From positions 1 to 61,496 of IMG/VR virus record IMGVR_UViG_3300021963_000137: 61,496 bases of DNA; one strand, given 5' to 3'. The notes under the pieces are model-generated. The model ran no database searches. It was given only the letters and a program-made list of their open reading frames with translations, and was not told the origin of the DNA. The stretch is from a virus (Duplodnaviria; Caudoviricetes). A program made the translations under genes and the position numbers. Below are positions 3,401 through 61,496 of this stretch, in pieces (the first letter of the stretch is position 1; each line of letters starts with the position of its first letter).

Positions 3401-4050
3401 GTACTTCTAATAACAGCTTCAGGGCTAAACAAATCAGCAGCAGTAGCATCTGACACCATGCTTAATGCAGGTGCTGCACTATCAGCCCATTGTTTAATAA
3501 TACTATCATCCATACCCATAAATTGAGAAGTACCAGCTGGCATAGATTCTGCTGAAGATACTTCTGCTCTTGCCCTAAGAATAGCTTGACCTGCCTCTAC
3601 TGGATCTTCAGTCATTAAGGCAGGAGCCATATTAGGTCTGGTAGATAAGTCAACTTCTTGTTGTTGACCATACTCAGCCATAGTAATAGGCTGAGTCATA
3701 TACTCACCAGTCTGAGGGTCAAACTGAGGCATACCCTGTTCATCTTCTACTAGGCTAAGTCTTTCTCGACCAGCAAGAGATGATTGAGTAGCCTGAGCTA
3801 GGTCTTCAGGAGTTGATTGTGCAGATAACCTATCTATATTAACTGGACCAGCAATACCCCCAGCGGGTAGGGGTACTACAGGAATAGGCTGTGGATTATA
3901 TACATCCATAGCTTGTTTAACTGCTTCTGTCCCAGGTATTTCTACCTGAGGTGCAGCACCAGTACCAAAGGCTTGGTTAGAGAATGCTTGCAATTGCTCT
4001 GCACTTAAAGGTGCTTTGCCTTGCGTATTTACATTTACATTAATTGCCAT
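436..4050 (-). CDS. Putative virion-encapsidated single-subunit RNA polymerase (internal virion protein)
   Basis: Motif A-like YDDGNQNG, motif B-like KAPLMQNSYG (Kx7YG), PIQSTDA, motif C VHDS, in the canonical order; last gene of the ejection-protein block. Confidence 0.75.
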   Translation of the reverse strand: MAINVNVNTQGKAPLSAEQLQAFSNQAFGTGAAPQVEIPGTEAVKQAMDVYNPQPIPVVPLPAGGIAGPVNIDRLSAQSTPEDLAQATQSSLAGRERLSLVEDEQGMPQFDPQTGEYMTQPITMAEYGQQQEVDLSTRPNMAPALMTEDPVEAGQAILRARAEVSSAESMPAGTSQFMGMDDSIIKQWADSAAPALSMVSDATAADLFSPEAVIRSTAEGYYGVPAGLEILNTNNIPLEYARPISTVLGIAHARATEQTRLFKNGIKTDPFEDVAEVRDKNGNLMDAQPKTNLVNSTIASMHNALSNLGMNIPAQAVRQLAEAKVEAEIAQHRHLPMLDKDNNIVYGSSKEMKDLAAELSYMSAALAGDERRSLPSKVPQISGSNFIKPGSQGTKNSLFIEGAKQPVAETVKDIFSSIGEIFLPKAMLSTSIQLEDIKKNMVDGPEGFYSSSPFAKRHKVSLSDYNKLKQRVKPPSDYNNNDPVSRAKFVELQNQHAKTTINNAIQFMEYDLANAQKIKGVVYTGYSHSMANQRFFRTNAGTDILASKNATREMLNFGIQGLTYANHFFDPVKIKNLQDKAMGIFSKSGKARNKALMALTPDERTALGLMECAVVNYYSYSGDPTVLNKDIVKQPEIQLIRMYTPEIGKHLGMLGKEYNDWLSGNVAEGSNIVNLLANMPRGEAQSHQNLYDDFAQLGMAAIDPAMANRFIKLSALNYDDGNQNGIFIQSLYAGKPTVAIRLGSYNPNLSDMRGYALSIIGDNLSNIIVDNKDRLDGWKNFFSNAVNEKLATDLFKAPLMQNSYGKDSGMFFDHVLSFLENSQEYNSVFAEYVLPNYNSSTEAAQDLANALDATLRKVIDPSFTRMLKKVGRMFAVINSIPILKGITGDDTVYSSVDLGFIPDQFRDIEGTGMTPEGQPYTTVDRGIETNTYLAPEGIVEVQAARRMYNAAAGKPNQSFYNKAKNKFDLFENALGSALSRLLGVMPIQSTDADLLKLMMLDLNADRKIPLPVATVHDSLITTMDTMHLYRNTYNNVAIPQAIPEIKKFAKQLENAYIKAKDEVFRRTAGASDVGIGTKGDFPALGAFFEDLNKKTNNSPEYEAYIKNRSKDSIKSWEDLKAKNNQLLDKAKKAGWIDGIPNLTVSGSQFRDLFNMIESYQQLGGAENMFKIFANEFEGKVDQGFKALRTNGNVIKHGIAQMTHA

Positions 4051-17856: not shown

Positions 17857-17874
17857 CCTATTAGGGGTCTTCTA
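17857..17874 (-). promoter_or_regulatory. Candidate phage RNAP promoter (variant GACCCCTAATAGG)
   Basis: One mismatch to the GTCCCCTAATAG core; intergenic, upstream of the tail/ejection block. Confidence 0.65.
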
Positions 17875-32930: not shown

Positions 32931-33016
32931 GTGTCTATTCCTTTAATAAAGTGCTACTACTTTGTTCCTTCCCCCATGAGTAGCCAACAAGGTTGGACAC
33001 AAGGGAACTTTGTTTA

Positions 33017-33172
33017 TTATTTATTTTGTCCTCTGATAGCCAAGTATTGACCATCAGCCTCTTTTAGTTTACCATCCTGTTTAGGATATACTAGTTTATT
33101 AGGTTGTTGAGGCTTAATCAAAGCCTTTAATTGTTCTTTTTCTTTACCACGTAGGTTTAAATCAATAGCCAT
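33017..33172 (-). CDS. Small basic hypothetical protein, 51 aa (not in ORF track)
   Basis: MAIDLNLRGKEKEQLKALIKP...GQNK; fills the operon gap. Confidence 0.5.
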   Translation of the reverse strand: MAIDLNLRGKEKEQLKALIKPQQPNKLVYPKQDGKLKEADGQYLAIRGQNK

Positions 33173-33178
33173 ATTAGT

Positions 33179-33460
33179 TTACCATTTCACTTTGTTAGCC
33201 CAGTATGCCGCTGATAACGGTCCTTTAGCAATATTACTTGCATGTCTAGCCTTAAAAGATTCTCTACGCTTTCTGTATGATTCTGACTCTCCCTCTTTTT
33301 TGGGAGACCCTTGAGTACCTTGTTCACCAAAACGAATAGTCTTAACAGTGTCCCCACTCTTAGCAACTACTACATGACTTTTTGTAGGATGACTAGGTGT
33401 CTTCTTAGGTTTATTAAAACCAGATACACCAGCCCTCTCTAATCTAGGATCTTTTGCCAT
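33179..33460 (-). CDS. Small basic phage protein (DUF6321-like)
   Basis: KTIRFG...RRESFKARH...SAAYWA..W motif. Confidence 0.7.
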   Translation of the reverse strand: MAKDPRLERAGVSGFNKPKKTPSHPTKSHVVVAKSGDTVKTIRFGEQGTQGSPKKEGESESYRKRRESFKARHASNIAKGPLSAAYWANKVKW

Positions 33461-33606
33461 TACTTCCCCTTCTTAGCAGTCTTAGCCGAATCTTTAAAAG
33501 CTTTGTTTGTAGGAGCACCCTTAGTTCCAGGTTTCCTCATTTTCTCTTTAGACCCTTCAGCAATCCGTTTTTTCTTAGCATGTATATTATCGTATAATCC
33601 TGCCAT
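33460..33606 (-). CDS. Small basic phage protein, 48 aa (not in ORF track)
   Basis: MAGLYDNIHAKKKRIAEGSKEKMRKPGTKGAPT; GAGGA RBS; stop overlaps the next start. Confidence 0.7.
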   Translation of the reverse strand: MAGLYDNIHAKKKRIAEGSKEKMRKPGTKGAPTNKAFKDSAKTAKKGK

Positions 33607-33615
33607 ATTATTCCT

Positions 33616-35256
33616 CTATATCCAAGTGGTTTCTAATTGTTGAAAGTTCCCCATCTTTTGTGTAAAAGGAACATTAGTTGTTGTTAGTCTATCTCCGTGT
33701 GTCCTGATTACTTCCAGAGCAATAGCAAGAGCGATAACGGTATCATCATTGTGACCAACAATAGCATTTGTCCGACCATTGTCATCAGCCACATAATTCA
33801 TTAGCTCCCCAATAATAGTTCTTGAAGGTATCCATATTTCTTCCTGTTCAATAGCACTCTTAAGAAACCCAATAATAGCTGGCTTAGAAGATGTTGTTGT
33901 TCTCCAACCCATCCGCATACCTTCATCTTTAGATACATTAGCCATTTTAGTTTGATAATACATATTAACATAGCCCATTTGAACTAGTCTATTTAATGTG
34001 GCAATACCCATACTGTTAGACTCTACCGCCATTAAAGCGTTATTATAGTATCTTCCTAGATAGAACAATAGATCTCCAAACTTACTGGGATCAATCATAT
34101 TATTTCTATACGTGGCACATATCTCTTTTTCTGCATTCATAACTACTGCAGCAGAATGGTCTTTACCTACCCCTAAGGATACGTCTGCAGCTATAACAAA
34201 GGATTGATCAAAGGATGGATATTTAAATATCTCAATAGAACCCTGTCGGGCATCCTCCATCATCATACTTTCAAAGTTAAATTCTCTCTGAGCTAATATA
34301 GGTTGTGGTATTAGTTTATTTAACTTTTCAATACTGAATACATTAGAGCCTGAAACAATAAAGGCTTCTTCAGGAGTCGCTGGGTACTCCTGTTTAAATT
34401 TGTCTACCCCACTCTCAGCTATCTTGAGTCTCCTCCAGTATAACTGATCATTATCTAAATTAAACCTTGTAACTAATATTTCTTCTTCATCTGTTTTCTC
34501 AAACCCCTCAGGGCTATTCCTACGATATTCAGACATAAGAAACCAAGGTACAAATATAGGTATATATTCATTCTTACCAGCTACAGCATCTGTCCATAGT
34601 CTATGAAATGAGTTTCCTACCCCATTAGCTGTACTCTCAAGGATAACCTCGGTACCGTCTGCTTGGGAGATCCCCTGAAATAAACCTGCTAGGATTTTTT
34701 CATCATGAAGCCAGAAGGATACTTCTGAAAGATGTGCGATCGTAGGCGTAATACCCCTACCCGCCTCAGGAGAACCTGCTGTATACAATCTATAACCAGA
34801 ATCATTATGTTCAAACATAATCTCTTTTGCGTTAGATCTCTTTAAAGTAGGTGAAAACTGTGTAGGCATATTAGAAATAATATTCCTGGACATAGTAAAT
34901 AAAGCATCAGATGTTGCAGCATCATGAGCCATAACAACACTCTTGTTGTAAGCATTGAAATAAGACTTCCAGAATACTCTACCAGTAGTATATGTAGAAA
35001 GACCCATCTGTCGGGCTTTTAAAATAATAGCCCTAACTTTTCCAGTTTCTTTTAGTTGACCTTCAATAGCATCATTAACGATCTTTTGTGCATCATTAAA
35101 TTCAAAAGGTTGGAATCCTAGTCGGGAGTCTTTGGGTAGAATCTTTATTTGCTCTTTTGCAAAGAGTTCAAAGTTATTTTGGTATTCTGCGAGTTTTTCT
35201 CTGCGCTTTAGTTCCCTTAAAGCCTCTAGCTTGCGGGTGTTTGAAGTGGTTGTCAT
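33616..35256 (-). CDS. terL: Terminase large subunit
   Basis: Walker A ILKARQMGLST, Walker B AHLSE, ESTANG, nuclease AADVS and HNDDTV motifs. Confidence 0.92.
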   Translation of the reverse strand: MTTTSNTRKLEALRELKRREKLAEYQNNFELFAKEQIKILPKDSRLGFQPFEFNDAQKIVNDAIEGQLKETGKVRAIILKARQMGLSTYTTGRVFWKSYFNAYNKSVVMAHDAATSDALFTMSRNIISNMPTQFSPTLKRSNAKEIMFEHNDSGYRLYTAGSPEAGRGITPTIAHLSEVSFWLHDEKILAGLFQGISQADGTEVILESTANGVGNSFHRLWTDAVAGKNEYIPIFVPWFLMSEYRRNSPEGFEKTDEEEILVTRFNLDNDQLYWRRLKIAESGVDKFKQEYPATPEEAFIVSGSNVFSIEKLNKLIPQPILAQREFNFESMMMEDARQGSIEIFKYPSFDQSFVIAADVSLGVGKDHSAAVVMNAEKEICATYRNNMIDPSKFGDLLFYLGRYYNNALMAVESNSMGIATLNRLVQMGYVNMYYQTKMANVSKDEGMRMGWRTTTSSKPAIIGFLKSAIEQEEIWIPSRTIIGELMNYVADDNGRTNAIVGHNDDTVIALAIALEVIRTHGDRLTTTNVPFTQKMGNFQQLETTWI

Positions 35257-35274
35257 GGGGTGTAGTTATAGTTT

Positions 35275-35293
35275 CTCTATTAGGGGACTACTC
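35275..35293 (-). promoter_or_regulatory. Candidate phage RNAP late promoter GAGTAGTCCCCTAATAG
   Basis: Repeat motif at the head of the whole late arm, about 20 nt upstream of terL. Confidence 0.8.
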
Positions 35294-35344
35294 TTTATAC
35301 TTTTTATTTATAGCCCCTTAGTCTTTGTGTGTGAAAAAGAATCA

Positions 35345-35500
35345 GGGGTTTGTTGTTCTCCCCCTCCTGTGTCGTGTGACCCCCCTGTCTCGTGGTGGTC
35401 GGTCGTGCTGCGGTGTCGGGTCGTTCCTGCCTCTCTTCTTCTGTCGGTGGTGCTGTGGCGCTGGTGCTGTCGACTTCCTTTGTTAGCGCTGTCTTGGAGT
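35345..35500 (+). other. Adenine-depleted GC-rich non-coding leader (possible genome-end/first-injected region)
   Basis: 4 A in 156 nt; no A from 35380 to 35472. Confidence 0.6.
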
Positions 35501-35505
35501 TCATT

Positions 35506-35661
35506 ATGCGTTCTATCCTCTTGTTCGTTTGTCTTCGCCGTGGTTTTGGTTTGTCCTTCTCTACTGCCTGTGGTCACTTGCTTAATGCTTGGGGTACTGC
35601 TCAGTGGTACAGTGACATGTCTACTGTTGACCTGTTCCTGTTAGCTACTCGTAAGTCTTAA
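35506..35661 (+). CDS. First early gene, 51 aa
   Basis: GGAG RBS then ATG at 35506. Confidence 0.5.
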   Translation: MRSILLFVCLRRGFGLSFSTACGHLLNAWGTAQWYSDMSTVDLFLLATRKS

Positions 35662-35711
35662 GGGCTTTCTCGATTGGCTCCTTGTGGGGTCTTTCGAGAG
35701 CGTCTTGCTCT
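35662..35711 (+). repeat. Early intergenic structured element type 1, diverged copy
   Basis: Hairpin followed by GAGAGCGTCTTGCTCT. Confidence 0.6.
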
Positions 35712-35726
35712 GTTTGGGAGGTTGGT

Positions 35727-35870
35727 ATGTATCTCGGTGACTTGCTTCGTAAGAAGCTTGCTGAGCTGCCACCTGTGGATGAGGCGGCACTTGATGCTTA
35801 CCTTGACGAAGTAGAAGAAGAATTCTGCTTTGTTTGTGGTAATGAGTGTTGCAATCATCCTCAGGATTAA
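35727..35870 (+). CDS. Small acidic early protein with C-terminal Cys cluster
   Basis: GGGAGG RBS; CFVCGNECC. Confidence 0.6.
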   Translation: MYLGDLLRKKLAELPPVDEAALDAYLDEVEEEFCFVCGNECCNHPQD

Positions 35871-35875
35871 GAGGC

Positions 35876-35921
35876 TGCCTGTAGCATCCTGTTAGGGTGC
35901 TATGGAGAGCGATCTTGCTCT
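35876..35921 (+). repeat. Early intergenic structured element type 1
   Basis: TGCCT-hairpin-GGAGAGCGATCTTGCTCT. Confidence 0.75.
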
Positions 35922-35940
35922 ATTCTAAAAGGGGTTTGTT

Positions 35941-36156
35941 ATGTCTTCTTCTTTTGTTGTCTACGCTGTGTCTGCTTCTGCTCCTCAGTGTGTTGTTGCT
36001 AGCTTTGATACTGTTGCTGAAGCTAATGCTGCTGCTTGGTTGGCTAACTCTATCGATAGTACTTGTGACTATCGTGTTGATGAGGTCTTGCTTGATGATT
36101 TGCTTTGTTCTGAGTGGAAGACCAAGGAGAGAATGTCAGGATACGAGTTACTTTAA
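35941..36156 (+). CDS. Small early protein
   Basis: AGGGG RBS; bounded by repeat elements. Confidence 0.6.
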   Translation: MSSSFVVYAVSASAPQCVVASFDTVAEANAAAWLANSIDSTCDYRVDEVLLDDLLCSEWKTKERMSGYELL

Positions 36157-36165
36157 TAAGATCTT

Positions 36166-36208
36166 TGCCTATTGGGTATAACAACCCAATGGAGAGCGAT
36201 CTTGCTCT
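36166..36208 (+). repeat. Early intergenic structured element type 1
   Basis: TGCCT-different hairpin-GGAGAGCGATCTTGCTCT. Confidence 0.75.
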
Positions 36209-36232
36209 TGTACATAACTCAAGGAGATTAAC

Positions 36233-36430
36233 ATGTACACAATCCTCAACGTCCTTACCGCTATCATGTGGTATGCTGCTGCATCATGGTCTATAGATCA
36301 GATCTATACTCATGACAACAATAGCCCTCTTATGATTGCTATCTTAGTTGCATCAGCTGTCTTAGCGGGTATGCAAGCATTTGATCTGATTAACAACATT
36401 GAAGACAAACACAACCAAGGAGAACTGTAA
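36233..36430 (+). CDS. Small two-TM early membrane protein
   Basis: AAGGAG RBS; two hydrophobic segments. Confidence 0.65.
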   Translation: MYTILNVLTAIMWYAAASWSIDQIYTHDNNSPLMIAILVASAVLAGMQAFDLINNIEDKHNQGEL

Positions 36431-36571
36431 TGTACTACGTATACCATAGGCTCACTAAGGTATTGATTGCTAAGACTACATCAGTCAGAGTGCTCAATGA
36501 GTACGATCCAACATACTATGAAGTAGTAACCTACTAATAGCATACCTTCTCGGTTAGAGAGACCAGGGCAT

Positions 36572-36587
36572 CAGGGGTAAGTACCTG
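36572..36587 (+). repeat. Early intergenic structured element type 2
   Basis: CAGG-GGTAAGTA-CCTG hairpin. Confidence 0.6.
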
Positions 36588-36615
36588 CCGTTAACATCAA
36601 CTCAAGGAGAACGTT

Positions 36616-36906
36616 ATGTCAGTAGCAGAAATCAAACCAGCATTCGCTATCAAAGGCGATACAACAACAACAGCCTACACATCTACACCATCTATCTTGA
36701 TGGCAGTGTTTGTAGACAAAGAAAACAAATACTGGTATGCAGTAGATGATCAGCAGACTATCCGTAAGATGTCCATCACACGGGATGTTGAACATGCTCG
36801 TAGAGAGTATAAGATTGCTCGTAACCTTGTAGGCAAGAAGGTATACTTTGGTGTCACACAAGGATGGGATGGTAATGTATGGTTCAATGAAGTCATTGAA
36901 GCTTAA
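36616..36906 (+). CDS. Early hypothetical protein
   Basis: AAGGAG RBS. Confidence 0.7.
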   Translation: MSVAEIKPAFAIKGDTTTTAYTSTPSILMAVFVDKENKYWYAVDDQQTIRKMSITRDVEHARREYKIARNLVGKKVYFGVTQGWDGNVWFNEVIEA

Positions 36907-36914
36907 CCTGTAAG

Positions 36915-36965
36915 ACAGTCTTCACGGCTGTATAAAAGTGAGACCTCTTGGGGTAAGTACCAAGA
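36915..36965 (+). repeat. Early structured element type 2 preceded by a predicted pseudoknot
   Basis: TCTTGG-GGTAAGTA-CCAAGA hairpin; ACAGTC/GGCTGT and TTCAC/GTGAG pairings. Confidence 0.6.
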
Positions 36966-36997
36966 TCACATAACACACTCAACACAAGGGGATAAAC

Positions 36998-37246
36998 ATG
37001 AAATACATGCTGTTAACACCAGTAACACCAGAGGACTTCTGCCTCGATACCTTCGAGGAAGTACAGGAGTCAGCACAAGAATTCGGATGTAACATAATGT
37101 TATCAACAAAGATAACAGGAGGAACAATTGCATTCTTTGTAGCTAAGACAAAAGAAGCACTAGAGAGTATGTGCTCACAGGTAGACCTAGATGGTACCGT
37201 AATAGGGTACTCAGAAACCTATGACCAACTCGTAGTAATCAGTTAA
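36998..37246 (+). CDS. Early hypothetical protein
   Basis: AAGGGG RBS. Confidence 0.65.
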   Translation: MKYMLLTPVTPEDFCLDTFEEVQESAQEFGCNIMLSTKITGGTIAFFVAKTKEALESMCSQVDLDGTVIGYSETYDQLVVIS

Positions 37247-37260
37247 CCAAAGAGAATAAT

Positions 37261-37452
37261 ATGAACTACCATACCTATATGACGTTACCATTAGAACGAT
37301 TCCTAGAAGAACTTAAACAAGAAAGAGATAGGAGGGTATACCTAAGGACAAAATCTCTGCAGGAAGTACTACAAGGATATACCCAGACATACACCCGACA
37401 GGCAACTGAGGAGAAGTATGCAGAGAACGTAGCGAGAGGAGGTTTTTTGTAG
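37261..37452 (+). CDS. Early hypothetical protein
   Basis: ORF in operon. Confidence 0.55.
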   Translation: MNYHTYMTLPLERFLEELKQERDRRVYLRTKSLQEVLQGYTQTYTRQATEEKYAENVARGGFL

Positions 37453-37516
37453 AAAGTATTTTGTGTGTGCTAAAAGTGTAACAAAGTGAATCAAAATGAA
37501 CATAAAGGAAGTTCAA

Positions 37517-37849
37517 ATGAAACAACACATCCATCATGACGCCATCATAGCGTGGGCTAAAGGTGCTAAGATACAATTCCAAGACACCACTAGTGCAGCT
37601 AAATGGCATGACTCAGAAAGCCCTATGTGGTATGAAGATCACATATACCGAGTAAAGCCTGAACCAATCATCCGAGACGTAACCCATAACCTCTACATTA
37701 ACAGTGTAGAAGAACTAGCCTTAGCATTCGAAGAAAGAGGAGTAGGCAGAGTGCATCCATCATACAAACTCATAGGCTCAATCAAGCTTACATTCCAAGA
37801 CAAAAAACTAGTTAACTATTCAGAAGTATTCATTGACGGAGTAAGCTAA
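37517..37849 (+). CDS. Hypothetical phage protein (start revised to MKQHIH)
   Basis: AAGGA RBS; H...IIAWAKGAKIQ...P.W....YRVKP motif. Confidence 0.65.
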   Translation: MKQHIHHDAIIAWAKGAKIQFQDTTSAAKWHDSESPMWYEDHIYRVKPEPIIRDVTHNLYINSVEELALAFEERGVGRVHPSYKLIGSIKLTFQDKKLVNYSEVFIDGVS

Positions 37850-38055
37850 TGATCTTCCTTCCACTACTCTTTGTATGCCTAACTGACAACGTAACATGTC
37901 AATTCGGTATACTAAAAGCAACAGATGACTTTAACAAATGTCTCATACAAGTCCAAGAGGCTTCTAAAGAACTCGAAGATAATCCTACAGTAGGAGTATT
38001 CAGAGCAACGTGTGCAGAAATAAATGATGTAACTTTAAAAGGAAAACAAACATGA
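37849..38055 (+). CDS. Small Cys-containing protein with hydrophobic N-terminus
   Basis: Coupled ORF; four Cys; similar to 41478-41669. Confidence 0.6.
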   Translation: MIFLPLLFVCLTDNVTCQFGILKATDDFNKCLIQVQEASKELEDNPTVGVFRATCAEINDVTLKGKQT

Positions 38056-38486
38056 ATCCAGAAGTCAAACAACTGTGGCTAGATGCCTTACGTTCAGGTA
38101 AATACACTCAAGGTAAATCTCTACTCAGACCAACTGAAAGCACCTATTGTTGTCTAGGTGTGTTATGCCAGATAGCAGAAGAAAGAGGTATATGTGAATA
38201 CATTCCTTCAGACGAACATGAAGGATTCACAATTAAATATCCAGATGTATTCCAAGATGGTTTTTGTGACGGAAATGTATACGAAGAATCTGAACTACCT
38301 TGGGTAGTAAAACAATGGGCAGGATTAGATAACGAGAATCCTAAAGTAACACTCAATGAAAGGAACACAAAAGAACACCTAAAAGGTACAATGCAAGACA
38401 ACACCATAATAACCTTAGCACAGTTAAATGACGAACATAATTATACATTCACAGAATTAGCAGACATCATTGAGGAGCAATTATGA
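38052..38486 (+). CDS. Hypothetical phage protein
   Basis: W..ALRSGKY.QG..L...CCLGVLC...LND...F.E.AD.IE motif. Confidence 0.7.
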   Translation: MNPEVKQLWLDALRSGKYTQGKSLLRPTESTYCCLGVLCQIAEERGICEYIPSDEHEGFTIKYPDVFQDGFCDGNVYEESELPWVVKQWAGLDNENPKVTLNERNTKEHLKGTMQDNTIITLAQLNDEHNYTFTELADIIEEQL

Positions 38487-38722
38487 TTAAAAGAGATAAA
38501 AGCATGGGTGCATTGTTAACCAAAAACATCACCTATACACTGCACATTAACCAAGAACAGTTAGACCTACTCGAAGAACTACTCGGCTTTGTAGGCGGTA
38601 TAGGTCGTAACAGAGACATGACTAACGAACTACAAATGGCTCTTGAACAATATGCCACAAGAGACAGAGACATGTGTGAAACAAACTACTTCAAAGAAGA
38701 AAGCTTAGTGGTAGTCAAATGA
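38483..38722 (+). CDS. Hypothetical protein
   Basis: GAGGAG RBS, coupled ORF. Confidence 0.6.
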   Translation: MIKRDKSMGALLTKNITYTLHINQEQLDLLEELLGFVGGIGRNRDMTNELQMALEQYATRDRDMCETNYFKEESLVVVK

Positions 38723-38907
38723 TGTTCGAAACATTACTCATCATCCTGTCAATAGTCATTGTATCATACATTCTGATATTCGTATCAGACTATATGCTTA
38801 ATGACTCCGATCAAGAACGTCTCAATCAAGAATACGCAGAGAAAGCCAGAAAACACAATGAGCTTATGGTCAAAAAGGAGAATCGTAATGGCCCATTCAG
38901 CGGCTGA
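38719..38907 (+). CDS. Small membrane protein
   Basis: N-terminal TM segment. Confidence 0.55.
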   Translation: MMFETLLIILSIVIVSYILIFVSDYMLNDSDQERLNQEYAEKARKHNELMVKKENRNGPFSG

Positions 38908-39038
38908 AATATACTTTGATCTTATCAAACGTATCAAAGATAAAGTCAAAGCAGACATATCCATTGTGTATGATCCTGAAACTGGTATCCAAAAACATTT
39001 TCTTAAAGGTAAATTATTAAAAGTTAAAAAGGTATCCG

Positions 39039-39344
39039 ATGGAACAAAACCTAACAGCAATAATCTATGACAAGAAAGGAAGAATCTTAAGTATAGGTAA
39101 AAACAGTTATACCAAGACACATCCTTTTCAAGCGTTACATGCTAAAAAGCAGAATATGCCTGAGAGAATCTTTTTACATGCTGAAGTTTCAGCTATTGTG
39201 AGATGTTCTGATATATCTAAAGCACATAAGATGCTTGTTATCAGAACAAACAAAGAAGGTAGACATCTATATGCAAAACCATGTAATATATGTATGTCTG
39301 CTATAAAGTCAGTAAACATTAACCAAATTGAATGGAGTATATAG
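39039..39344 (+). CDS. Small cytidine-deaminase-fold protein
   Basis: HAE and PCxxC zinc motifs (LHAEVSAI, KPCNIC). Confidence 0.75.
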   Translation: MEQNLTAIIYDKKGRILSIGKNSYTKTHPFQALHAKKQNMPERIFLHAEVSAIVRCSDISKAHKMLVIRTNKEGRHLYAKPCNICMSAIKSVNINQIEWSI

Positions 39345-39520
39345 TATGTTCTTAGCTATTCTACGTGATGACTTCTCTTTAGTAGGTATCGGTGAATCCA
39401 TTGAAGAAGCCTTTGATGCTCTCCATGACCAAGAGTCAGGTGCAGAGATTGAAGACTGTGACTTCTTTGACCTAGTCAACCCAATGCGATTCACCTACGT
39501 ACTCACTCAGAAGTAAACTC

Positions 39521-39540
39521 TAGTTGTCCCCTAATAGGGA
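39521..39540 (+). promoter_or_regulatory. Candidate phage RNAP promoter AGTTGTCCCCTAATAGG
   Basis: Repeat motif; followed by an AT-rich tract. Confidence 0.8.
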
Positions 39541-39604
39541 ATTCTGAAAAAATAATATTTATTAATATATTATTAATAAAAGAACTTAATTAAGATAAAT
39601 AAAA
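39541..39604. other. AT-rich tract, candidate replication origin
   Basis: Nearly pure A/T directly downstream of the phage promoter. Confidence 0.5.
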
Positions 39605-39636
39605 AAGAGAATAATAACAAATGTTACTATTCTCTT
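39601..39636 (-). terminator. Terminator of the inverted small-terminase-like gene
   Basis: AAGAGAATAGTAAC-ATTT-GTTATTATTCTCTT then T-run on the minus strand. Confidence 0.65.
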
Positions 39637-39642
39637 AATTAC

Positions 39643-40023
39643 TTACTCTGATAGACCTTCTTCGGAGATTATCTTCTTAAGTTCTTCATCAGTCAGATCC
39701 ACTGTCTTGTTAGTGTTAGTCTGTTCAATCCTAGCTAGCTTAGGATTCTCATACTCTGCTATCATATTAGCGTATCTTGCTGCATCCTCAAAGTTATCTT
39801 CCTGAAGTGCTTTAAACATAGCCATTCTAAGCACATCAAGTGAAGATACCTGAGGAAGATCATCTAAAGCTCTTTGAAAGGCTTTAGCCGTTATCTTAAA
39901 TTCCTCTGCTAACTTAACGTTTAATGACCTAGATGCTGCACTCTTAAGCTGATTAGCTCGTGCAGTCTCCGAGGTAATAACCTTAAGATTAGCTAAGGAA
40001 TTAGGATGTATTCCTTTTGACAT
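39643..40023 (-). CDS. Putative terminase small subunit
   Basis: HPNSLANLK N-terminus, DLTDEELKKI C-terminus, own late-type promoter. Confidence 0.6.
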   Translation of the reverse strand: MSKGIHPNSLANLKVITSETARANQLKSAASRSLNVKLAEEFKITAKAFQRALDDLPQVSSLDVLRMAMFKALQEDNFEDAARYANMIAEYENPKLARIEQTNTNKTVDLTDEELKKIISEEGLSE

Positions 40024-40046
40024 ATTTTTAATCCTCATAGTAGTTT

Positions 40047-40064
40047 CCTATTAGGGGACTACTC
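40047..40064 (-). promoter_or_regulatory. Candidate phage RNAP late promoter GAGTAGTCCCCTAATAGG
   Basis: Shares an identical 17-mer with the terL promoter. Confidence 0.8.
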
Positions 40065-40088
40065 AATCTTTAATCCATAGGAACAATC

Positions 40089-40598
40089 ATGACAGTAGCA
40101 ACAAATGACACAGTTAACGTAATCATCAAAGATGTAGAATTACACTGGGCTAAATTAGATAAGCCTGTTGATCCCTTCGGTACTCTACAATATGAGTTAC
40201 AGATTCAGGCTCCCAAGAAACGTGAGAAAGAGTTATCTGCTTTCGGTAAAGTTAAAGTTATCGATGGTGGTAAAATCTCTATTAACCTGAAAAAGAAAGC
40301 TCTTAAAGCTGATGGTACTGATGCTGCTAAAGTACGTGTTGTAGATGCCACTAAAGAAGCACTTGATCCAAAGCTTATCGGTAATGGCTCTATCGGTAAT
40401 GTTATGGTTATGCAGAAGCCTTATGAGATCAAGGCTCCTAACGGTAAAGTAACTAAGTCAGGTATCTCCAATATGCTCACAGCTGTACAAGTTACTAAGC
40501 TTGTTAAGTATGAACGTAAGAGTGAAAACTTTGTAGACTTCGATGCTGAAGAGTCTACTGGTGTTCAAGAAACAGCAACAGAAGATTCACCATTCTAA
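40089..40598 (+). CDS. Single-stranded DNA-binding protein (T7 gp2.5-like)
   Basis: IGNGS motif, AVQVTKLVKY, acidic tail ending in PF. Confidence 0.75.
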   Translation: MTVATNDTVNVIIKDVELHWAKLDKPVDPFGTLQYELQIQAPKKREKELSAFGKVKVIDGGKISINLKKKALKADGTDAAKVRVVDATKEALDPKLIGNGSIGNVMVMQKPYEIKAPNGKVTKSGISNMLTAVQVTKLVKYERKSENFVDFDAEESTGVQETATEDSPF

Positions 40599-40629
40599 AT
40601 CTATCAGTTAGTCATAACTGACTAATAAT

Positions 40630-40663
40630 AACCCTTCAAGGAATCCTCTTTGAAGGGTTTTTT
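40630..40663 (+). terminator. Rho-independent terminator after the SSB gene
   Basis: AACCCTTCAAGGA-ATCC-TCTTTGAAGGGTT plus T-run. Confidence 0.85.
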
Positions 40664-40678
40664 AATCAAAGGTAATAT

Positions 40679-40897
40679 ATGTATAAATTTGCTTTTAAAG
40701 ATAAACACACAAAACACTTAGATTATCCTAACGGAGACCTAATGACAGAACAGTCATGTGCATTAATCACATACAAAATTAATGAAGATCATCATGATGT
40801 AGTAATAAATGTAGAAAATATGCACTTCAGAGAAGAAGATCTAAACGAATTAATTGCTTTCTTAACAACTCTAAACAACAAAATCAAAGGACTCTAA
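40679..40897 (+). CDS. Hypothetical protein
   Basis: AAGGT RBS. Confidence 0.55.
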   Translation: MYKFAFKDKHTKHLDYPNGDLMTEQSCALITYKINEDHHDVVINVENMHFREEDLNELIAFLTTLNNKIKGL

Positions 40898-40898
40898 A

Positions 40899-41285
40899 AT
40901 GGCTAAGCTTAACAAAGATCAAATCAAATATGCTGTTCAACGTGCTAATGCTAAACTAAATGAAAAAGAGGAATTACAAAAAGAATCTATTCCTGTAATA
41001 GAAAACCCATTGTATAATGCAAAGGCTGTCTACAATGCTATCTACTCAGGTAAACAAATGCCTTTTGAACAATTCGAAAAAGAATTTAATCATGGTTACT
41101 ACTTTGCTAATGGGGTTCGTGATTTAGCAGCCTATGACAAAGAATTCACAGCGGAACATGATCGTTATAATCTGTTGCTAAGAAAAATCTCTGAAGACAT
41201 CAATGTACAACGTATTGCTATCCAAGATAAACTATACCTCTCAGATGATGCTGCTGAAGTATTAGCCTTAATTGATGCTCTCTAA
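40899..41285 (+). CDS. Hypothetical protein
   Basis: AAGGA RBS, 128 aa. Confidence 0.65.
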   Translation: MAKLNKDQIKYAVQRANAKLNEKEELQKESIPVIENPLYNAKAVYNAIYSGKQMPFEQFEKEFNHGYYFANGVRDLAAYDKEFTAEHDRYNLLLRKISEDINVQRIAIQDKLYLSDDAAEVLALIDAL

Positions 41286-43224: not shown

Positions 43225-43545
43225 ATGAAAGCAATATTCGCATACAAACTGTTTCGTAAACGTAAAAACGGTACCTATGGTCCATTATTTATTAATAGAC
43301 CACAAATGCTCTTTGTAGGTATAACCTATGATGCTGAAGATCATCCTACTAAAGGATATGCTCACAGACCAGGTTGGCACTGTTGTTCTTTACCTATAGC
43401 ACCACACCTATCTAAAAAAGGTCGTGTATGGTGTGAAGTTAAAATTGAAGGATACACAGAACACATAAGACCATACAGTCAAGGTGGCTTGTGGTATACA
43501 GCAGATAAATTAACTATCCTAAAGGAAATAGATGTTAAGGCATAA
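43225..43545 (+). CDS. Hypothetical phage protein
   Basis: AYKLFR...PLFIN...HPTKGYAHRPGWHC...PHL...QGGLW. Confidence 0.6.
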   Translation: MKAIFAYKLFRKRKNGTYGPLFINRPQMLFVGITYDAEDHPTKGYAHRPGWHCCSLPIAPHLSKKGRVWCEVKIEGYTEHIRPYSQGGLWYTADKLTILKEIDVKA

Positions 43546-43966
43546 AGAACATACCTATCTTGCTGGTCCTATTGAAGGATTAACCAAAGAACAAGCAATG
43601 AAATGGAGAACAGAAGCTTCTTTTGAACTAGCTAACTTTGGTGTTGATACATTAGACCCAACTCGTAGAACATCTTTCATTGACAGTAACCATCTAACAA
43701 CCAAGAATGCTGCAAGACGAGTATGGAAGGCTGACCTTCAAGATATCGCCTATAGTACAGTTGTATTAGCTAATCTATCAGACAATCTCCCAGGAAAAAA
43801 GTGGGGTACTGTATGTGAGATAGCTCATGCACATACCAAAAATAAAATCATTATTGTTGTTATGGATAAAGATCAATTCGAACATCCATTCATAACACAA
43901 TATGCTACTGAAGTGCATCATACGTTAAAAGATGCTATTGAAGCTGTAAAGGAGTATTACCTGTGA
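43532..43966 (+). CDS. Nucleoside 2-deoxyribosyltransferase-like protein
   Basis: YLAGPI, DL..I, GT..EI motifs. Confidence 0.75.
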   Translation: MLRHKEHTYLAGPIEGLTKEQAMKWRTEASFELANFGVDTLDPTRRTSFIDSNHLTTKNAARRVWKADLQDIAYSTVVLANLSDNLPGKKWGTVCEIAHAHTKNKIIIVVMDKDQFEHPFITQYATEVHHTLKDAIEAVKEYYL

Positions 43967-47561: not shown

Positions 47562-47837
47562 ATGTCATCGAAGAATAATCTTATAGCACGTATCACACAA
47601 GAAGAATGTGCTGAAGTGATACAGGCTATTTCTAAAGCATTACGCTTTGGAGTAGATCATGTGTCACCTGTTACAGGTATCACTAACAAATCTCATCTTG
47701 AAGACGAGATGGGACAATTGATTGCTATGATGCAGCTACTAGCTGATGAATGGAAATTAGAACGTGATAACGTAACAGCAGCATATAAACAAAAACAAAA
47801 GAATTATGACTTATGGGATAAACAATATGCTGATTGA
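47562..47837 (+). CDS. MazG-like NTP pyrophosphohydrolase
   Basis: EECAEVIQAISK..RFG...LEDEMG. Confidence 0.65.
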   Translation: MSSKNNLIARITQEECAEVIQAISKALRFGVDHVSPVTGITNKSHLEDEMGQLIAMMQLLADEWKLERDNVTAAYKQKQKNYDLWDKQYAD

Positions 47838-47950: not shown

Positions 47951-48418
47951 ATGAAAACTCAGAAGGATTGGGATCAGTTTTATCTGAAGATAGCACAGCT
48001 AGTAGCGCAACAAAGCTATGCTAAAGACCGTAAAGTAGGTGCTGTTATCGTTAAGAATGATAACATCATTTCTTTTTCTTACAATGGAACACCACGAGGA
48101 TGGGATAATGAAACTCAGACAGATGATGGACAAACTAAATCAATGGTACTACACGCTGAAGCTCAAGCTATTGCTAAGTTGGCTCGATCAACCTTATCTA
48201 GTGATAGCGCTACTCTCTACTGTACCCTTAGTCCTTGTATTGATTGTGCAAAGCTTATTAGTGAAGTGGGTATTAAACGGTTAGTTTATATTGATGAATA
48301 TAAATGTACTCAAGGTATTGATTTCTTAATAGCTAACAATGTATTAGTCAATGAAGAATATTCAACAACAAGATTAGCCAGTAAAGAATGGTTAGCTAGA
48401 ACAGGATTACTATGGTAG
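47951..48418 (+). CDS. dCMP deaminase
   Basis: KVGAVIV, YNGTP, HAE, TLSPCIDC. Confidence 0.9.
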   Translation: MKTQKDWDQFYLKIAQLVAQQSYAKDRKVGAVIVKNDNIISFSYNGTPRGWDNETQTDDGQTKSMVLHAEAQAIAKLARSTLSSDSATLYCTLSPCIDCAKLISEVGIKRLVYIDEYKCTQGIDFLIANNVLVNEEYSTTRLASKEWLARTGLLW

Positions 48419-59064: not shown

Positions 59065-59515
59065 TATTTCTGTAGTGTTATTACCACTACGTAATCTTTT
59101 TGCAGATAACTTTGTTGTATATTACAAGTCACATGGATACCACTTCAATGTTGAAGGACCAACTTTTGCTCAAGACCATGAGTTATTAAATGAAATTTAT
59201 GATTTCCTTTGGGCACAACATGATAGCTTAGGTGAACAATTACGTCAGCTAGATAAGCCAGCATTACCCTCTCTTAAAGCTATTTTAGATACAACAGAGA
59301 TTTCTGAGTGTAACAAACTAGGTGAGTCTAGTAAGACCATGTTTACTGAATTATGTAATGACTTTGAAATATTAATTCAAAATGCTCAATCATTATTTGA
59401 AGTAGCTGATAAAACATGTTATGGTGGTTTGAATACTTATATTGGTGACTATCTTAGAGACTTAGGTAAATTACATTGGAAAGTAAAAGCAACTATTGGA
59501 AAGAGCTTTAAATGA
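59054..59515 (+). CDS. dps: Dps-family ferritin-like protein
   Basis: HGYHFNVEGPTF...H...Y...D..GE..R and C-terminal K..W. Confidence 0.85.
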   Translation: MVNNISVVLLPLRNLFADNFVVYYKSHGYHFNVEGPTFAQDHELLNEIYDFLWAQHDSLGEQLRQLDKPALPSLKAILDTTEISECNKLGESSKTMFTELCNDFEILIQNAQSLFEVADKTCYGGLNTYIGDYLRDLGKLHWKVKATIGKSFK

Positions 59516-59766
59516 AACAATATCAAAACTATAACATCTTTGCTTTAAGAGGTGATAGAGAGACATCTGACATGGATGTATGTACAAATCTAGGGTTAGA
59601 CCCTAAACTAGCTGGTACGCCAGATATTAATGAAGCTGCTATCCGAAAGATGCACAAAGAAAATTATGAGGGATACCTTACAAAAGGTTACTCTCCAGAT
59701 GAAGCTTTATCTTTGGCTGATACAAATGCAGATAGTGTTCGTCAAGAAATTAAAAGACTGATTTAA
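59512..59766 (+). CDS. Hypothetical protein, last gene of the plus arm
   Basis: 84-aa coupled ORF. Confidence 0.8.
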   Translation: MKQYQNYNIFALRGDRETSDMDVCTNLGLDPKLAGTPDINEAAIRKMHKENYEGYLTKGYSPDEALSLADTNADSVRQEIKRLI

Positions 59767-59812
59767 AAAAAAATAGCCCTTCAAGGAATTATCCTTGAGG
59801 GGCTTTTTATTT
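59765..59812. terminator. Bidirectional terminator (duplicate copy)
   Basis: Same hairpin as 387-433. Confidence 0.9.
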
Positions 59813-59814
59813 TG

Positions 59815-61496
59815 CTATGCGTGAGTCATCTGGGCAATACCATGTTTTATTACATTACTATTTGTACGTAATGCTTTAAAACCTTGATCTACTTTTCCTT
59901 CAAATTCATTTGCAAAAATCTTAAACATATTTTCTGCACCGCCTAATTGTTGGTAAGATTCAATCATATTAAATAAGTCTCTGAATTGTGAACCAGATAC
60001 TGTTAGATTAGGTATACCATCAATCCAACCTGCTTTCTTAGCTTTATCTAATAATTGATTGTTCTTTGCTTTAAGCTCTTCCCAACTTTTGATTGGGTCT
60101 TTTGATCTGTTTTTAATATATGCTTCATACTCTGGACTATTATTAGTCTTTTTATTTAAGTCTTCAAAGAAAGCGCCTAATGCAGGGAAGTCTCCTTTAG
60201 CACCAATACCTACGTCTGATGCACCAGCTGTTCTTTTAAACACTTCATCTTTAGCTTTGATATAAGCATCTTGTAATTGTTTAGCAAACTTTTTAATCTC
60301 AGGTATTGCCTGAGGAATTGCTACGTTATTATAAGTATTACGATAGAGATGCATTGTATCCATTGTTGTGATTAATGAATCATGAACAGTAGCTACTGGT
60401 AAAGGTATTTTTCTATCCGCATTTAAATCTAACATCATTAGCTTAAGCAAGTCAGCATCAGTAGATTGAATAGGCATAACACCTAACAATCTAGACAATG
60501 CAGAGCCAAGAGCATTTTCAAACAAATCAAATTTATTTTTGGCTTTGTTATAGAATGATTGATTAGGTTTACCAGCAGCAGCATTGTACATCCTTCTTGC
60601 TGCTTGTACTTCAACAATACCTTCAGGGGCTAAATAAGTATTTGTTTCAATACCTCTATCTACAGTAGTATATGGTTGTCCTTCAGGAGTCATACCCGTG
60701 CCTTCTACATCTCTGAATTGATCAGGAATAAAACCTAAATCAACAGAAGAATACACAGTGTCATCACCAGTAATACCTTTTAAAATAGGTATTGAGTTAA
60801 TAACAGCAAACATACGACCAACCTTTTTAAGCATACGAGTAAAACTTGGATCAATTACTTTTCTTAAAGTTGCGTCTAATGCGTTAGCTAAATCTTGTGC
60901 TGCTTCAGTTGAACTGTTGTAGTTAGGTAAAACATATTCAGCAAATACAGAATTATACTCTTGAGAATCTTCTAAGAAAGATAATACATGATCAAAGAAC
61001 ATTCCAGAATCTTTACCATAAGAATTCTGCATTAAAGGCGCTTTAAATAAATCAGTTGCTAACTTCTCATTAACTGCATTACTAAAGAAATTTTTCCAGC
61101 CATCAAGCCTATCTTTGTTATCAACAATTATATTAGATAAATTATCACCAATAATACTTAACGCATAACCACGCATGTCAGATAAGTTAGGGTTATAAGA
61201 ACCTAATCTAATTGCAACTGTTGGTTTACCTGCATACAAGGATTGAATAAAAATACCATTCTGATTTCCATCATCATAGTTTAAAGCACTAAGCTTAATA
61301 AAACGATTAGCCATTGCGGGATCCATTGCTGCCATACCTAATTGAGCAAAGTCATCATAAAGATTTTGATGTGATTGAGCTTCACCTCTAGGCATATTAG
61401 CAAGTAGGTTAACAATGTTTGATCCTTCAGCTACATTACCTGATAACCAATCATTATATTCTTTACCTAACATACCTAAATGTTTACCAATCTCAG
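59815..61496 (-). CDS. Partial duplicate of the putative virion RNA polymerase (C-terminal half)
   Basis: About 10 aa differences from the first copy; truncated by the window end. Confidence 0.8.
   Translation of the reverse strand, partial: EIGKHLGMLGKEYNDWLSGNVAEGSNIVNLLANMPRGEAQSHQNLYDDFAQLGMAAMDPAMANRFIKLSALNYDDGNQNGIFIQSLYAGKPTVAIRLGSYNPNLSDMRGYALSIIGDNLSNIIVDNKDRLDGWKNFFSNAVNEKLATDLFKAPLMQNSYGKDSGMFFDHVLSFLEDSQEYNSVFAEYVLPNYNSSTEAAQDLANALDATLRKVIDPSFTRMLKKVGRMFAVINSIPILKGITGDDTVYSSVDLGFIPDQFRDVEGTGMTPEGQPYTTVDRGIETNTYLAPEGIVEVQAARRMYNAAAGKPNQSFYNKAKNKFDLFENALGSALSRLLGVMPIQSTDADLLKLMMLDLNADRKIPLPVATVHDSLITTMDTMHLYRNTYNNVAIPQAIPEIKKFAKQLQDAYIKAKDEVFKRTAGASDVGIGAKGDFPALGAFFEDLNKKTNNSPEYEAYIKNRSKDPIKSWEELKAKNNQLLDKAKKAGWIDGIPNLTVSGSQFRDLFNMIESYQQLGGAENMFKIFANEFEGKVDQGFKALRTNSNVIKHGIAQMTHA

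Follow-up and report, generated by a model that had tools for sequence, protein, structure and literature searches.

A conserved RNA element with two mutually exclusive pairings between the first early genes of an uncultured phage

What is the role of a small hairpin element that recurs between the first early genes of a phage? The question is raised by the IMG/VR virus record IMGVR_UViG_3300021963_000137, which was analysed over all of its 61,496 bases and is referred to below as the window. At the start of its early arm, three copies of an element of about 57 bases are found on the + strand, each extending from the stop codon of the upstream gene to just short of the next ribosome-binding site. 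The element is real, conserved and structurally unusual. It most likely marks the place where early mRNA is cut or switched on, and not the start of transcription; its function is probably ordinary in kind, that is, early mRNA processing or coupling. The copies were located with cmsearch, and their minimum free energy (MFE) folds were computed.

35657..35714, + strand: copy A, the divergent 'type A' form; cmsearch E 4.5e-8; MFE -29.3 kcal/mol, z -3.9
35866..35924, + strand: copy B; cmsearch E 6e-10
36155..36210, + strand: copy C, the consensus form; cmsearch E 4.3e-14; the MFE fold is the long hairpin described below

No fourth copy was detected in the whole window by the covariance-model search. 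A simpler 17-mer pattern, with up to three mismatches, occurs twice in the window against 0.20 expected, and copy A, which lacks one base, escapes it. Compared with dinucleotide shuffles, the folds of the three intergenic stretches are more stable (z = -3.9, -2.8 and -3.4). A preliminary description of this DNA had reported an identical 20-mer in two copies, and it is indeed present at 35902-35921 and 36189-36208. The TGCCT ahead of the first stem (35876-35880 and 36166-36170), the first stems that are unrelated in sequence but self-pairing (GTAGCATCCT/AGGGTGCTAT and ATTGGGT/ACCCAAT), and the fixed fold AGAGC/GCTCT (AGAGC-GATCTT-GCTCT) were likewise found as described. Its looser third copy is copy A. 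Its placement of every copy between a stop codon and the next ribosome-binding site also holds, as all three have a stop codon upstream and a Shine-Dalgarno (SD) sequence with an ATG downstream. The extent that it gave to the unit was too narrow; conservation reaches back to the stop codon, T(A/G)AGATCTCTGCC, and the 5' arm that begins there is paired with the loop of the small fixed hairpin.

The copies share this plan with some variation. In copy A, the TAA of the first small open reading frame (ORF) lies at 35659-35661, a long hairpin spans about 35661-35706, and an alternative small hairpin about 35697-35711; the SD sequence GGGAGG follows 4 nucleotides downstream, and then the ATG at 35728. 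In copy B, the second small ORF ends with a TAA at 35868-35870; the upper hairpin occupies 35879-35905 and the small one 35906-35921, and the lower-stem 5' arm (AAGAGGC) is degenerate. Copy C begins with a tandem TAATAA stop (36154-36159), and its upper and small hairpins occupy 36169-36192 and 36193-36208. Its lower stem is formed by 36157-36163 with 36198-36204, and by 36165-36166 with 36195-36196.

The same element is found well beyond the window. An exact 18-mer occurs in 23 viral contigs, 22 of which hold the whole element in the same context; the match in the other contig, L003, was rejected as a GC-rich chance hit. The wider consensus consists of the stop codon T(A/G)AGATCTCTGCC(T/C)A, a variable hairpin and (T)GGAGAGCGATCTTGCTCT, followed by a nearby SD sequence and ATG. 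A covariance model was built on 21 aligned instances with the upper stem as its sole structure, and the flanking helices were, therefore, not fitted. As relatives, the best 80 of 204 contigs with a protein related to the large terminase subunit (TerL), at 77-99% identity, were taken. The model was searched against the window, the loci of these TerL relatives and nine loci from a pattern scan, 88 sources in all. This search with Infernal, proposed as a check in the preliminary description, gave 98 hits at E <= 0.02, corresponding to 76 distinct rows, and every hit in the TerL-oriented loci lies on the early-gene strand. For 51 relatives, the sequence available upstream of the terminase gene is at least 2.5 kb; of these, 34 carry one copy, 12 carry two, one carries three and four carry none, at distances of 259-1686 nucleotides from the terminase start. 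The three copies of the window are thus at the upper end of the range.

Known families and other genomes gave no counterpart. The second check that had been proposed, an Rfam scan, was run with Rfam 15 over 33000-41000 on both strands, and no family matched at E <= 1, known small ribozymes included. A blastn search of 35300-37000 against a phage collection also returned no match. In representative prokaryote genomes, 11 exact 19-mer matches were seen, all without the upstream arm and the hairpin, and several of them sit in recognisable coding sequence. Roseobacter phage CRP-7 is the only cultured relative found for this phage group; in its record, the best model hit (E 0.18) is at the wrong place and the element was not found. 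The element is an RNA motif that is absent from Rfam 15 and common to a large clade of uncultured phages, as seen in the best 80 of the 204 TerL-related contigs.

The alignment of 76 rows allows the helices to be judged one by one. In the upper stem, 89.6% of the cells are paired and 167 cells are altered on both sides; none of 500 shuffles was as high, and slid controls were paired in 37-46%. In the lower stem, GATCTTG is the partner of the stop codon and of the bases that follow it, and AG that of CT. This helix was not used in model building, and it is paired in 95.0% of the cells (slid controls, 37-54%), with 12 cells in four pairs altered on both sides. It is also rich in G·U (24, 30, 36 and 62 cells at four pairs), with many one-sided changes to G·U. 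The small hairpin AGAGC/GCTCT is paired in 95.1% of the cells, with 7 cells in three pairs altered on both sides, and is nearly pure Watson-Crick (one G·U in 364 cells). Compensation takes the lower stem from AAGATC/GATCTT to GACAGC/GCTGTT, AAAGC/GCTTT or AAGAG/CTCTT, and the small hairpin from AGAGC/GCTCT to ACAGC/GCTGT, GAAGC/GCTTC or AGAGT/ACTCT. Since the upper and lower stems are rich in G·U, they are structures of the sense RNA and not of the DNA. Further, the lower stem and the small hairpin share bases; they are therefore mutually exclusive, and the RNA has two states.

In the first of these, the RNA forms one long irregular hairpin with arms of about 21 nucleotides, a central internal loop and the stop codon of the upstream ORF at its base. 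Its mid-helix holds a conserved U×C mismatch (65 of the 76 rows) together with a 2×2 loop, either open or in a closed variant. In the second, the upper hairpin is retained, while the 3' arm of the lower stem refolds into AGAGC-loop-GCTCT, with a loop of GATCTT (6 nucleotides) or variants, directly abutting the upper hairpin. RNAalifold, unaided, predicts the long hairpin. When the two folds are imposed as constraints, the long one is the more stable in 73 of the 76 rows, with a mean gap of about 3.3 kcal/mol (-23.4 versus -20.0). For the arms of the long hairpin, the commonest length is 21 nucleotides, 74 of the 76 rows fall between 18 and 24 nucleotides, and the mean number of base pairs is 17.5; the type A copies keep to the same range of arm length despite a different distribution of pairs.

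Both mutually exclusive pairings appear, from the alignment, to be under selection. Three rows have A instead of G at column 52, and column 11 is U in all three; the partner of column 52 in the small hairpin is also altered in both of the A-rows whose 3' arm is aligned. A51 and G54 are invariant in all 76 rows, and A49, G52 and C53 are almost so. A pseudoknot, in which both helices would form at once, is conceivable, since the loop of the small hairpin doubles as the lower-stem 3' arm; nevertheless, the pattern favours two alternative states because the pairing of columns 11 and 52 overlaps the small hairpin and is itself conserved. The apparent selection on two exclusive pairings would make the element a compact natural two-state RNA.

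The placement of the element involves the following features.

35345..36150, + strand: tract in which the sense strand is depleted of adenine, with an AT skew as low as -0.76 and GC 0.54
35507..35661, + strand: first small ORF, 51 amino acids, inside the adenine-depleted leader, terminating at copy A
35728..35870, + strand: second small ORF, 47 amino acids, terminating at copy B; no Pfam match
35941..36156, + strand: third small ORF, 71 amino acids, terminating at copy C; no Pfam match
36233..36430, + strand: first early gene of normal base composition, 65 amino acids, with the leader CATAACTCAAGGAGATTAACATG ahead of it

The first base of the stop codon coincides with the first paired column (column 3) in 60 of 83 distinct contexts, as scored by a script that takes the longest open frame, is unreliable in adenine-poor DNA and mis-scored copy C (TAATAA at -3 and 0). 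The other stop codons were placed at -3 (1 context), -1 (4), +1 (2), +2 (1) and 13-27 (7), and none was found in 8 of the 83. The SD sequence and ATG follow 4-43 nucleotides past the element. The first small ORF keeps its SD sequence and ATG in relatives, and three of its five differences from L028 are synonymous, as read by eye. The leader CATAACTCAAGGAGATTAACATG stands before different genes in relatives.

The adenine-depleted tract is punctuated by the elements and closed by the last one. In the window, the adenine fraction is 0.149 up to the last element versus 0.335 downstream. For the relatives, 42 genomes were chosen and 3 were dropped where a simple pattern missed a conserved block (described below) from which the count begins; over the remaining 39, the mean adenine fraction is 0.09 from this block to the last element versus 0.28 in the next 600 nucleotides. 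The element ends the adenine-depleted leader in 39 of the 39 genomes scored, and the lowest content, in one relative, is 1.2% across 847 nucleotides. Being so depleted, the tract cannot hold stop codons, ATG, sigma-70 -10 hexamers or palindromic restriction sites containing A or T.

Other signals were seen around the leader. Across relatives, the adenine-depleted tract takes up the first 0.1-1.5 kb of the early arm on the sense strand. Immediately before it stands the conserved block, a single-copy TCTTTGTGTGTGAAAAAGAATCA at 35322-35344 (+ strand) with the inverted repeat TCTTT/AAAGA, kept in 39 of the 42 genomes and a candidate for an early start signal or an end-proximal site. Just ahead of the first ORF, at 35443-35474 (+ strand), the leader has a hairpin rich in G·U with TTCCTTTGTTAGCGCTGTCTTGGAG after it, which relatives also keep; in L048, this leader hairpin gives way to a complete copy of the element. 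A second type of conserved intergenic hairpin, at 36560-36590 and 36940-36970 (+ strand), carries a conserved 8-nucleotide loop, GGTA(A/T)GTA, on a covarying stem (CTTGG/CCAAG versus CAGG/CCTG). The looped form was present in 17 of the 22 relatives scanned, with one copy each and two in L033; the whole intergenic stretch folds no better than shuffles.

What, then, would such an element do? In the early region of phage T7, RNase III processing sites (R sites) stand between the early cistrons and after the leader. Here, too, are intercistronic hairpins in an early polycistronic region, a helix of about two turns with an internal loop, an upper hairpin that would stay behind as a 3' cap, and one site at the junction of the leader and the first gene. 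The element differs from the R sites in its unrelated sequence, for which Rfam has no match, in a second, apparently selected fold that reuses the 3' arm, in the stop codon within its base and in its position at the close of an adenine-depleted leader; its cleavage, too, is inferred only. By this analogy, the element may be a processing site of the RNase III type, and the 3' product would then fold anew, with a hairpin protecting its 5' end. We tentatively favour this reading and give it a probability of roughly 0.4.

The proposed course of events is simple. A double-strand-specific endoribonuclease, likeliest the RNase III of the host, would cut the long hairpin near its central internal loop. 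On the upstream RNA, the upper hairpin would remain and cap the 3' end. The mRNA on the other side would refold at once, with the small hairpin at its new 5' end, so that the end would be protected and the SD sequence free. Because the refolded hairpin starts where the upper one ends, a cut near the internal loop would leave both new ends capped, the 3' end of the upstream RNA and the 5' end of the downstream one. Such a cut would also detach the ordinary early genes from the adenine-depleted leader with its small ORFs. According to the available portion of one account, the idealised E. coli RNase III substrate is 22 base pairs, or two A-helical turns, and loops, bulges or mismatches at the target allow one-strand cleavage, while the 3' hairpins left behind act as stability determinants (PMC3867540). 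The arms of the long hairpin agree with about two A-form turns (20-22 base pairs), and the G·U pairs and the early-gene orientation place the structure in RNA of the transcribed strand. A processing or stabilising role had already been raised in the preliminary description. The covarying, G·U-rich stems in the sense RNA, the arms of about 21 nucleotides, the central internal loop and the intercistronic position all fit it; cleavage, the enzyme and the effects on stability and translation are the parts that we infer.

Several points weigh against the processing site. The 3' half is conserved beyond the loose sequence needs of RNase III, which suggests an additional sequence-specific reader. The lower stem of copy B is poor, and its MFE structure is the two-hairpin fold. 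Among the 53 ORFs of the + strand, no RNase III or other endoribonuclease family was found, and the enzyme would therefore have to be that of the host. The model seed was picked by the exact 18-mer, which biases the core towards invariance; moreover, because the copies are related to one another, the shuffle controls make the significance look greater than it is, and what is counted is sequences and not independent events. A metatranscriptome run, X1, available as contigs only, gave five pieces over 35000-38000 at 88-97% identity, none of which bridges an element, and its uncovered parts are uninformative. One contig of 299 nucleotides starts at 36205, inside GCTCT, and is a weak hint at most, as these contigs cannot show RNA ends, strand or level.

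The main rival is a ribosome-driven switch, which would also be compatible with processing by a nuclease. Translational coupling by the unmasking of a sequestered ribosome-binding site is a general mechanism. Here, the resting long hairpin would leave GCUCU, which resembles an anti-SD sequence, free to mask the downstream SD sequence; a ribosome terminating at the stop codon would melt the lower stem, the freed GGAGAGC would capture GCUCU, and the next SD sequence would be exposed. The stop codon at the very base of the helix, exactly at the first paired base in those 60 of 83 contexts and within 3 nucleotides in 8 more, is in accord with this, and opening the helix would alter the pairing near the next SD sequence, as in known unmasking. 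The energy gap of only about 3.3 kcal/mol and the covariation of both exclusive pairings also agree, as does the pairing of CUCU(U) with the downstream GGAG or AAGGAG in the MFE structures of copies A and C. However, the compensated small hairpins (GCTGT in 4 rows; GCTTC, ACTCT and CACTC) lose their complementarity to the SD sequence, which stays AAGGAG-like, and it is therefore the hairpin that is conserved and not an anti-SD sequence. In this the element departs from known unmasking, as it does in an SD sequence lying up to 43 nucleotides away, at a distance that varies from 4 nucleotides upwards. Besides, the element of L048 is in the leader, with a stop only 27 nucleotides into the element and not at its base, and the longest-open-frame script behind the stop counts can err in adenine-poor DNA. 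The switch is, therefore, a possible but doubtful explanation. The element might instead be bound by an RNA-binding protein, of phage or host origin, that recognises its sequence; or it might serve in processive antitermination, or be a self-cleaving RNA that has gone unrecognised. Conservation beyond the needs of pairing (the invariant A51 and G54, the U×C mismatch in 65 of 76 rows) would suit these possibilities, yet almost all conserved positions are explained by one or the other pairing, the Rfam scan returned no family, small ribozymes included, and no candidate protein partner was identified among the + strand ORFs; we regard them as unlikely. Some resemblance to nut/boxA-like or put-like antitermination sites, or to the mobile regulatory cassettes of T4-type phages, may also be noted. 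A boundary of transcription, where a 'pre-early' adenine-free unit would end at a terminator, an attenuator or a pause site, would account for the coincidence of the last copy with the passage from adenine-poor to normal composition in all 39 genomes scored, and the long hairpin is stable (mean -23.4 kcal/mol). But no U-tract follows the hairpin, and a terminator scan flagged none of the three copies, though it flagged sites elsewhere. The selected alternative small hairpin would be left unexplained, and the downstream genes would need a promoter of their own, of which the scan recognised none. This makes a boundary very unlikely.

The promoter offered as one of two readings in the preliminary description fares no better. 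On that view, extrusion of the template strand would turn the invariant small hairpin into an N4-type DNA hairpin promoter, to be read by an injected virion RNA polymerase, the 1204-residue protein, while the RNA hairpin upstream would perhaps end the previous transcript. The small hairpin, being almost all Watson-Crick, could form in DNA, and the copies lie 0.26-1.7 kb into the early arm. The 1204-residue protein has the fold of a single-subunit RNA polymerase, and its gene is the last of the late arm, next to two more giant ORFs. Like the promoters P1-P3 of N4, the copies are few, lie near the start of the early region and present a short conserved hairpin with conserved and compensating stem bases, and a divergent T7-like polymerase is encoded in the late arm. 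As described in the accessible part of one source, the N4 promoter is conserved from -17 to +1, with a fixed +1 and, centred at -11, a GC-rich heptamer that contains a 3-nucleotide loop (PMC4496689). Against that partial description, the element has a 6-nucleotide loop that covaries and pairs with an upstream RNA arm, and no conserved purine or start base was seen at a fixed distance after the stem, where the bases vary; in some copies, the SD sequence begins 4-6 nucleotides past the stem. The upper and lower stems form in RNA, and transcripts must therefore run through the element. No copy stands upstream of the first ORF (35507), so another promoter must exist, and most relatives carry a single copy, which again is unlike P1-P3. 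Finally, the polymerase diverges fast, to 49% identity or less, while the 3' half of the element stays almost invariant; the phage promoter motif CTATTAGGGGACTACTC, by contrast, does change between the same relatives. A conserved host factor as the reader of the element fits this pattern better than a phage polymerase. The promoter is thus disfavoured and hardly probable, being retained at all because the 1204-residue protein has a T7-like polymerase fold. As for other start sites, a sigma-70 promoter scan of the + strand over 35257-37600 found none, and neither did a reading of the spacing by eye; several relatives have sigma-70-like TTGGAT-17-TATAAT sites upstream of the conserved block, as read by eye.

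On the fold of the 1204-residue protein, the preliminary guess was right.

436-4050, - strand: 1204-residue ORF, predicted divergent single-subunit RNA polymerase (invariant residues and AlphaFold2/Foldseek)

Its AlphaFold2 model has a predicted local distance difference test score (pLDDT) of 79.4 and a predicted template modelling score (pTM) of 0.78. With Foldseek, the model aligns over about 1000 columns with the yeast mitochondrial RNA polymerase (1.7e-13), T7 RNA polymerase (about 2e-11) and human POLRMT. In the protein Atlas, the protein lies near clusters carrying PF00940, with scores of 0.92 and 0.91. Among 18 homologues, D715-D716-G-N-Q-N-G721, K792...Y800-G and H1012-D1013 are invariant, numbered on the 1200-residue query of the alignment, which is without the first four residues; we take these to be the polymerase motifs A, B and C. 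Sequence comparison gave far less. PHROGs, Pfam and tblastn against phages were all without a match, a profile search against PDB sequences returned only DNA polymerase I (E about 2.7, at the region of motif C), and hhalign against the single 733-residue polymerase sequence of the same phage gave nothing. The homologue P0007, from a contig of 63,339 bases, is only 49% identical; the contig of L033, whose TerL is 95% identical, has this same length; in two of three complete relatives, no match to the 1204-residue protein was found. Besides the 733-residue enzyme, the phage thus encodes another, cryptic T7-like polymerase, with which the late arm ends. This is reminiscent of the N4 virion polymerase and, judging from the position of the gene, the enzyme may be packaged in the virion.

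Taken together, the element, the adenine-depleted leader and the second polymerase point to an early expression that mixes T7-like and N4-like features. A bolder and rather improbable proposal is that the element is the exit gate of a 'pre-early' module. The nearly adenine-free leader would be made first after injection, possibly by the cryptic T7-like polymerase if this is injected, and the two-state RNA would turn the leader into ordinary early mRNAs when triggered by a nuclease, a terminating ribosome or self-cutting. Such a module, if true, would be previously undescribed.

The remainder of the genome has a two-arm layout. The late structural arm runs on the - strand from 35256 down to 436, with the genes of the large terminase subunit, portal, scaffold, capsid and tail fibre, and then the three giant ORFs of 1031, 1433 and 1204 residues. 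The early and replication arm, on the + strand from about 35300, holds a DNA polymerase, an exonuclease, a primase-helicase, the 733-residue T7-like RNA polymerase and a ribonucleotide reductase. By this 733-residue polymerase, CRP-7 is the nearest named phage (33% identity), and it has the same layout and three giant hypothetical ORFs; the positional counterparts of the giant ORFs (gp33-35) are annotated as hypothetical. The available part of its description mentions a single polymerase (PMC6918029).

The CTATTAGGGGACTACTC motif, with up to three mismatches, has seven copies in the window against 0.14 expected, at 17858, 35277, 39521, 40048, 47401, 56023 and 58193. Every copy of its reverse complement is oriented towards downstream genes in both arms, its sequence varies from relative to relative, and one of the phage polymerases probably uses it as a promoter. 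As an identity for the hairpin element, this T7-like promoter of the phage was considered and rejected, since the motif differs in sequence and none of the seven copies points into 35300-39500. A solitary - strand gene of 131 amino acids (39643-40038) lies within the + arm, with copies of the motif on both sides and its own terminator-like hairpin at 39605-39636. The + arm ORFs 39039-39341, 43532-43963, 47562-47834 and 47951-48415 include two cytidine/dCMP deaminase-like proteins, one nucleoside 2-deoxyribosyltransferase-like protein and one MazG-like protein, which may have a bearing on nucleotide pools or DNA modification. The two ends of the record (1-2118 and 59379-61496) repeat one another at 98-99% identity, and not 100%. 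As the first 2.1 kb or so repeats the last 2.1 kb, the genome would be about 59.4 kb, and the repeat does not resemble a clean terminal repeat but an overlap left by the assembly of a circular or concatemeric form from a mixed population.

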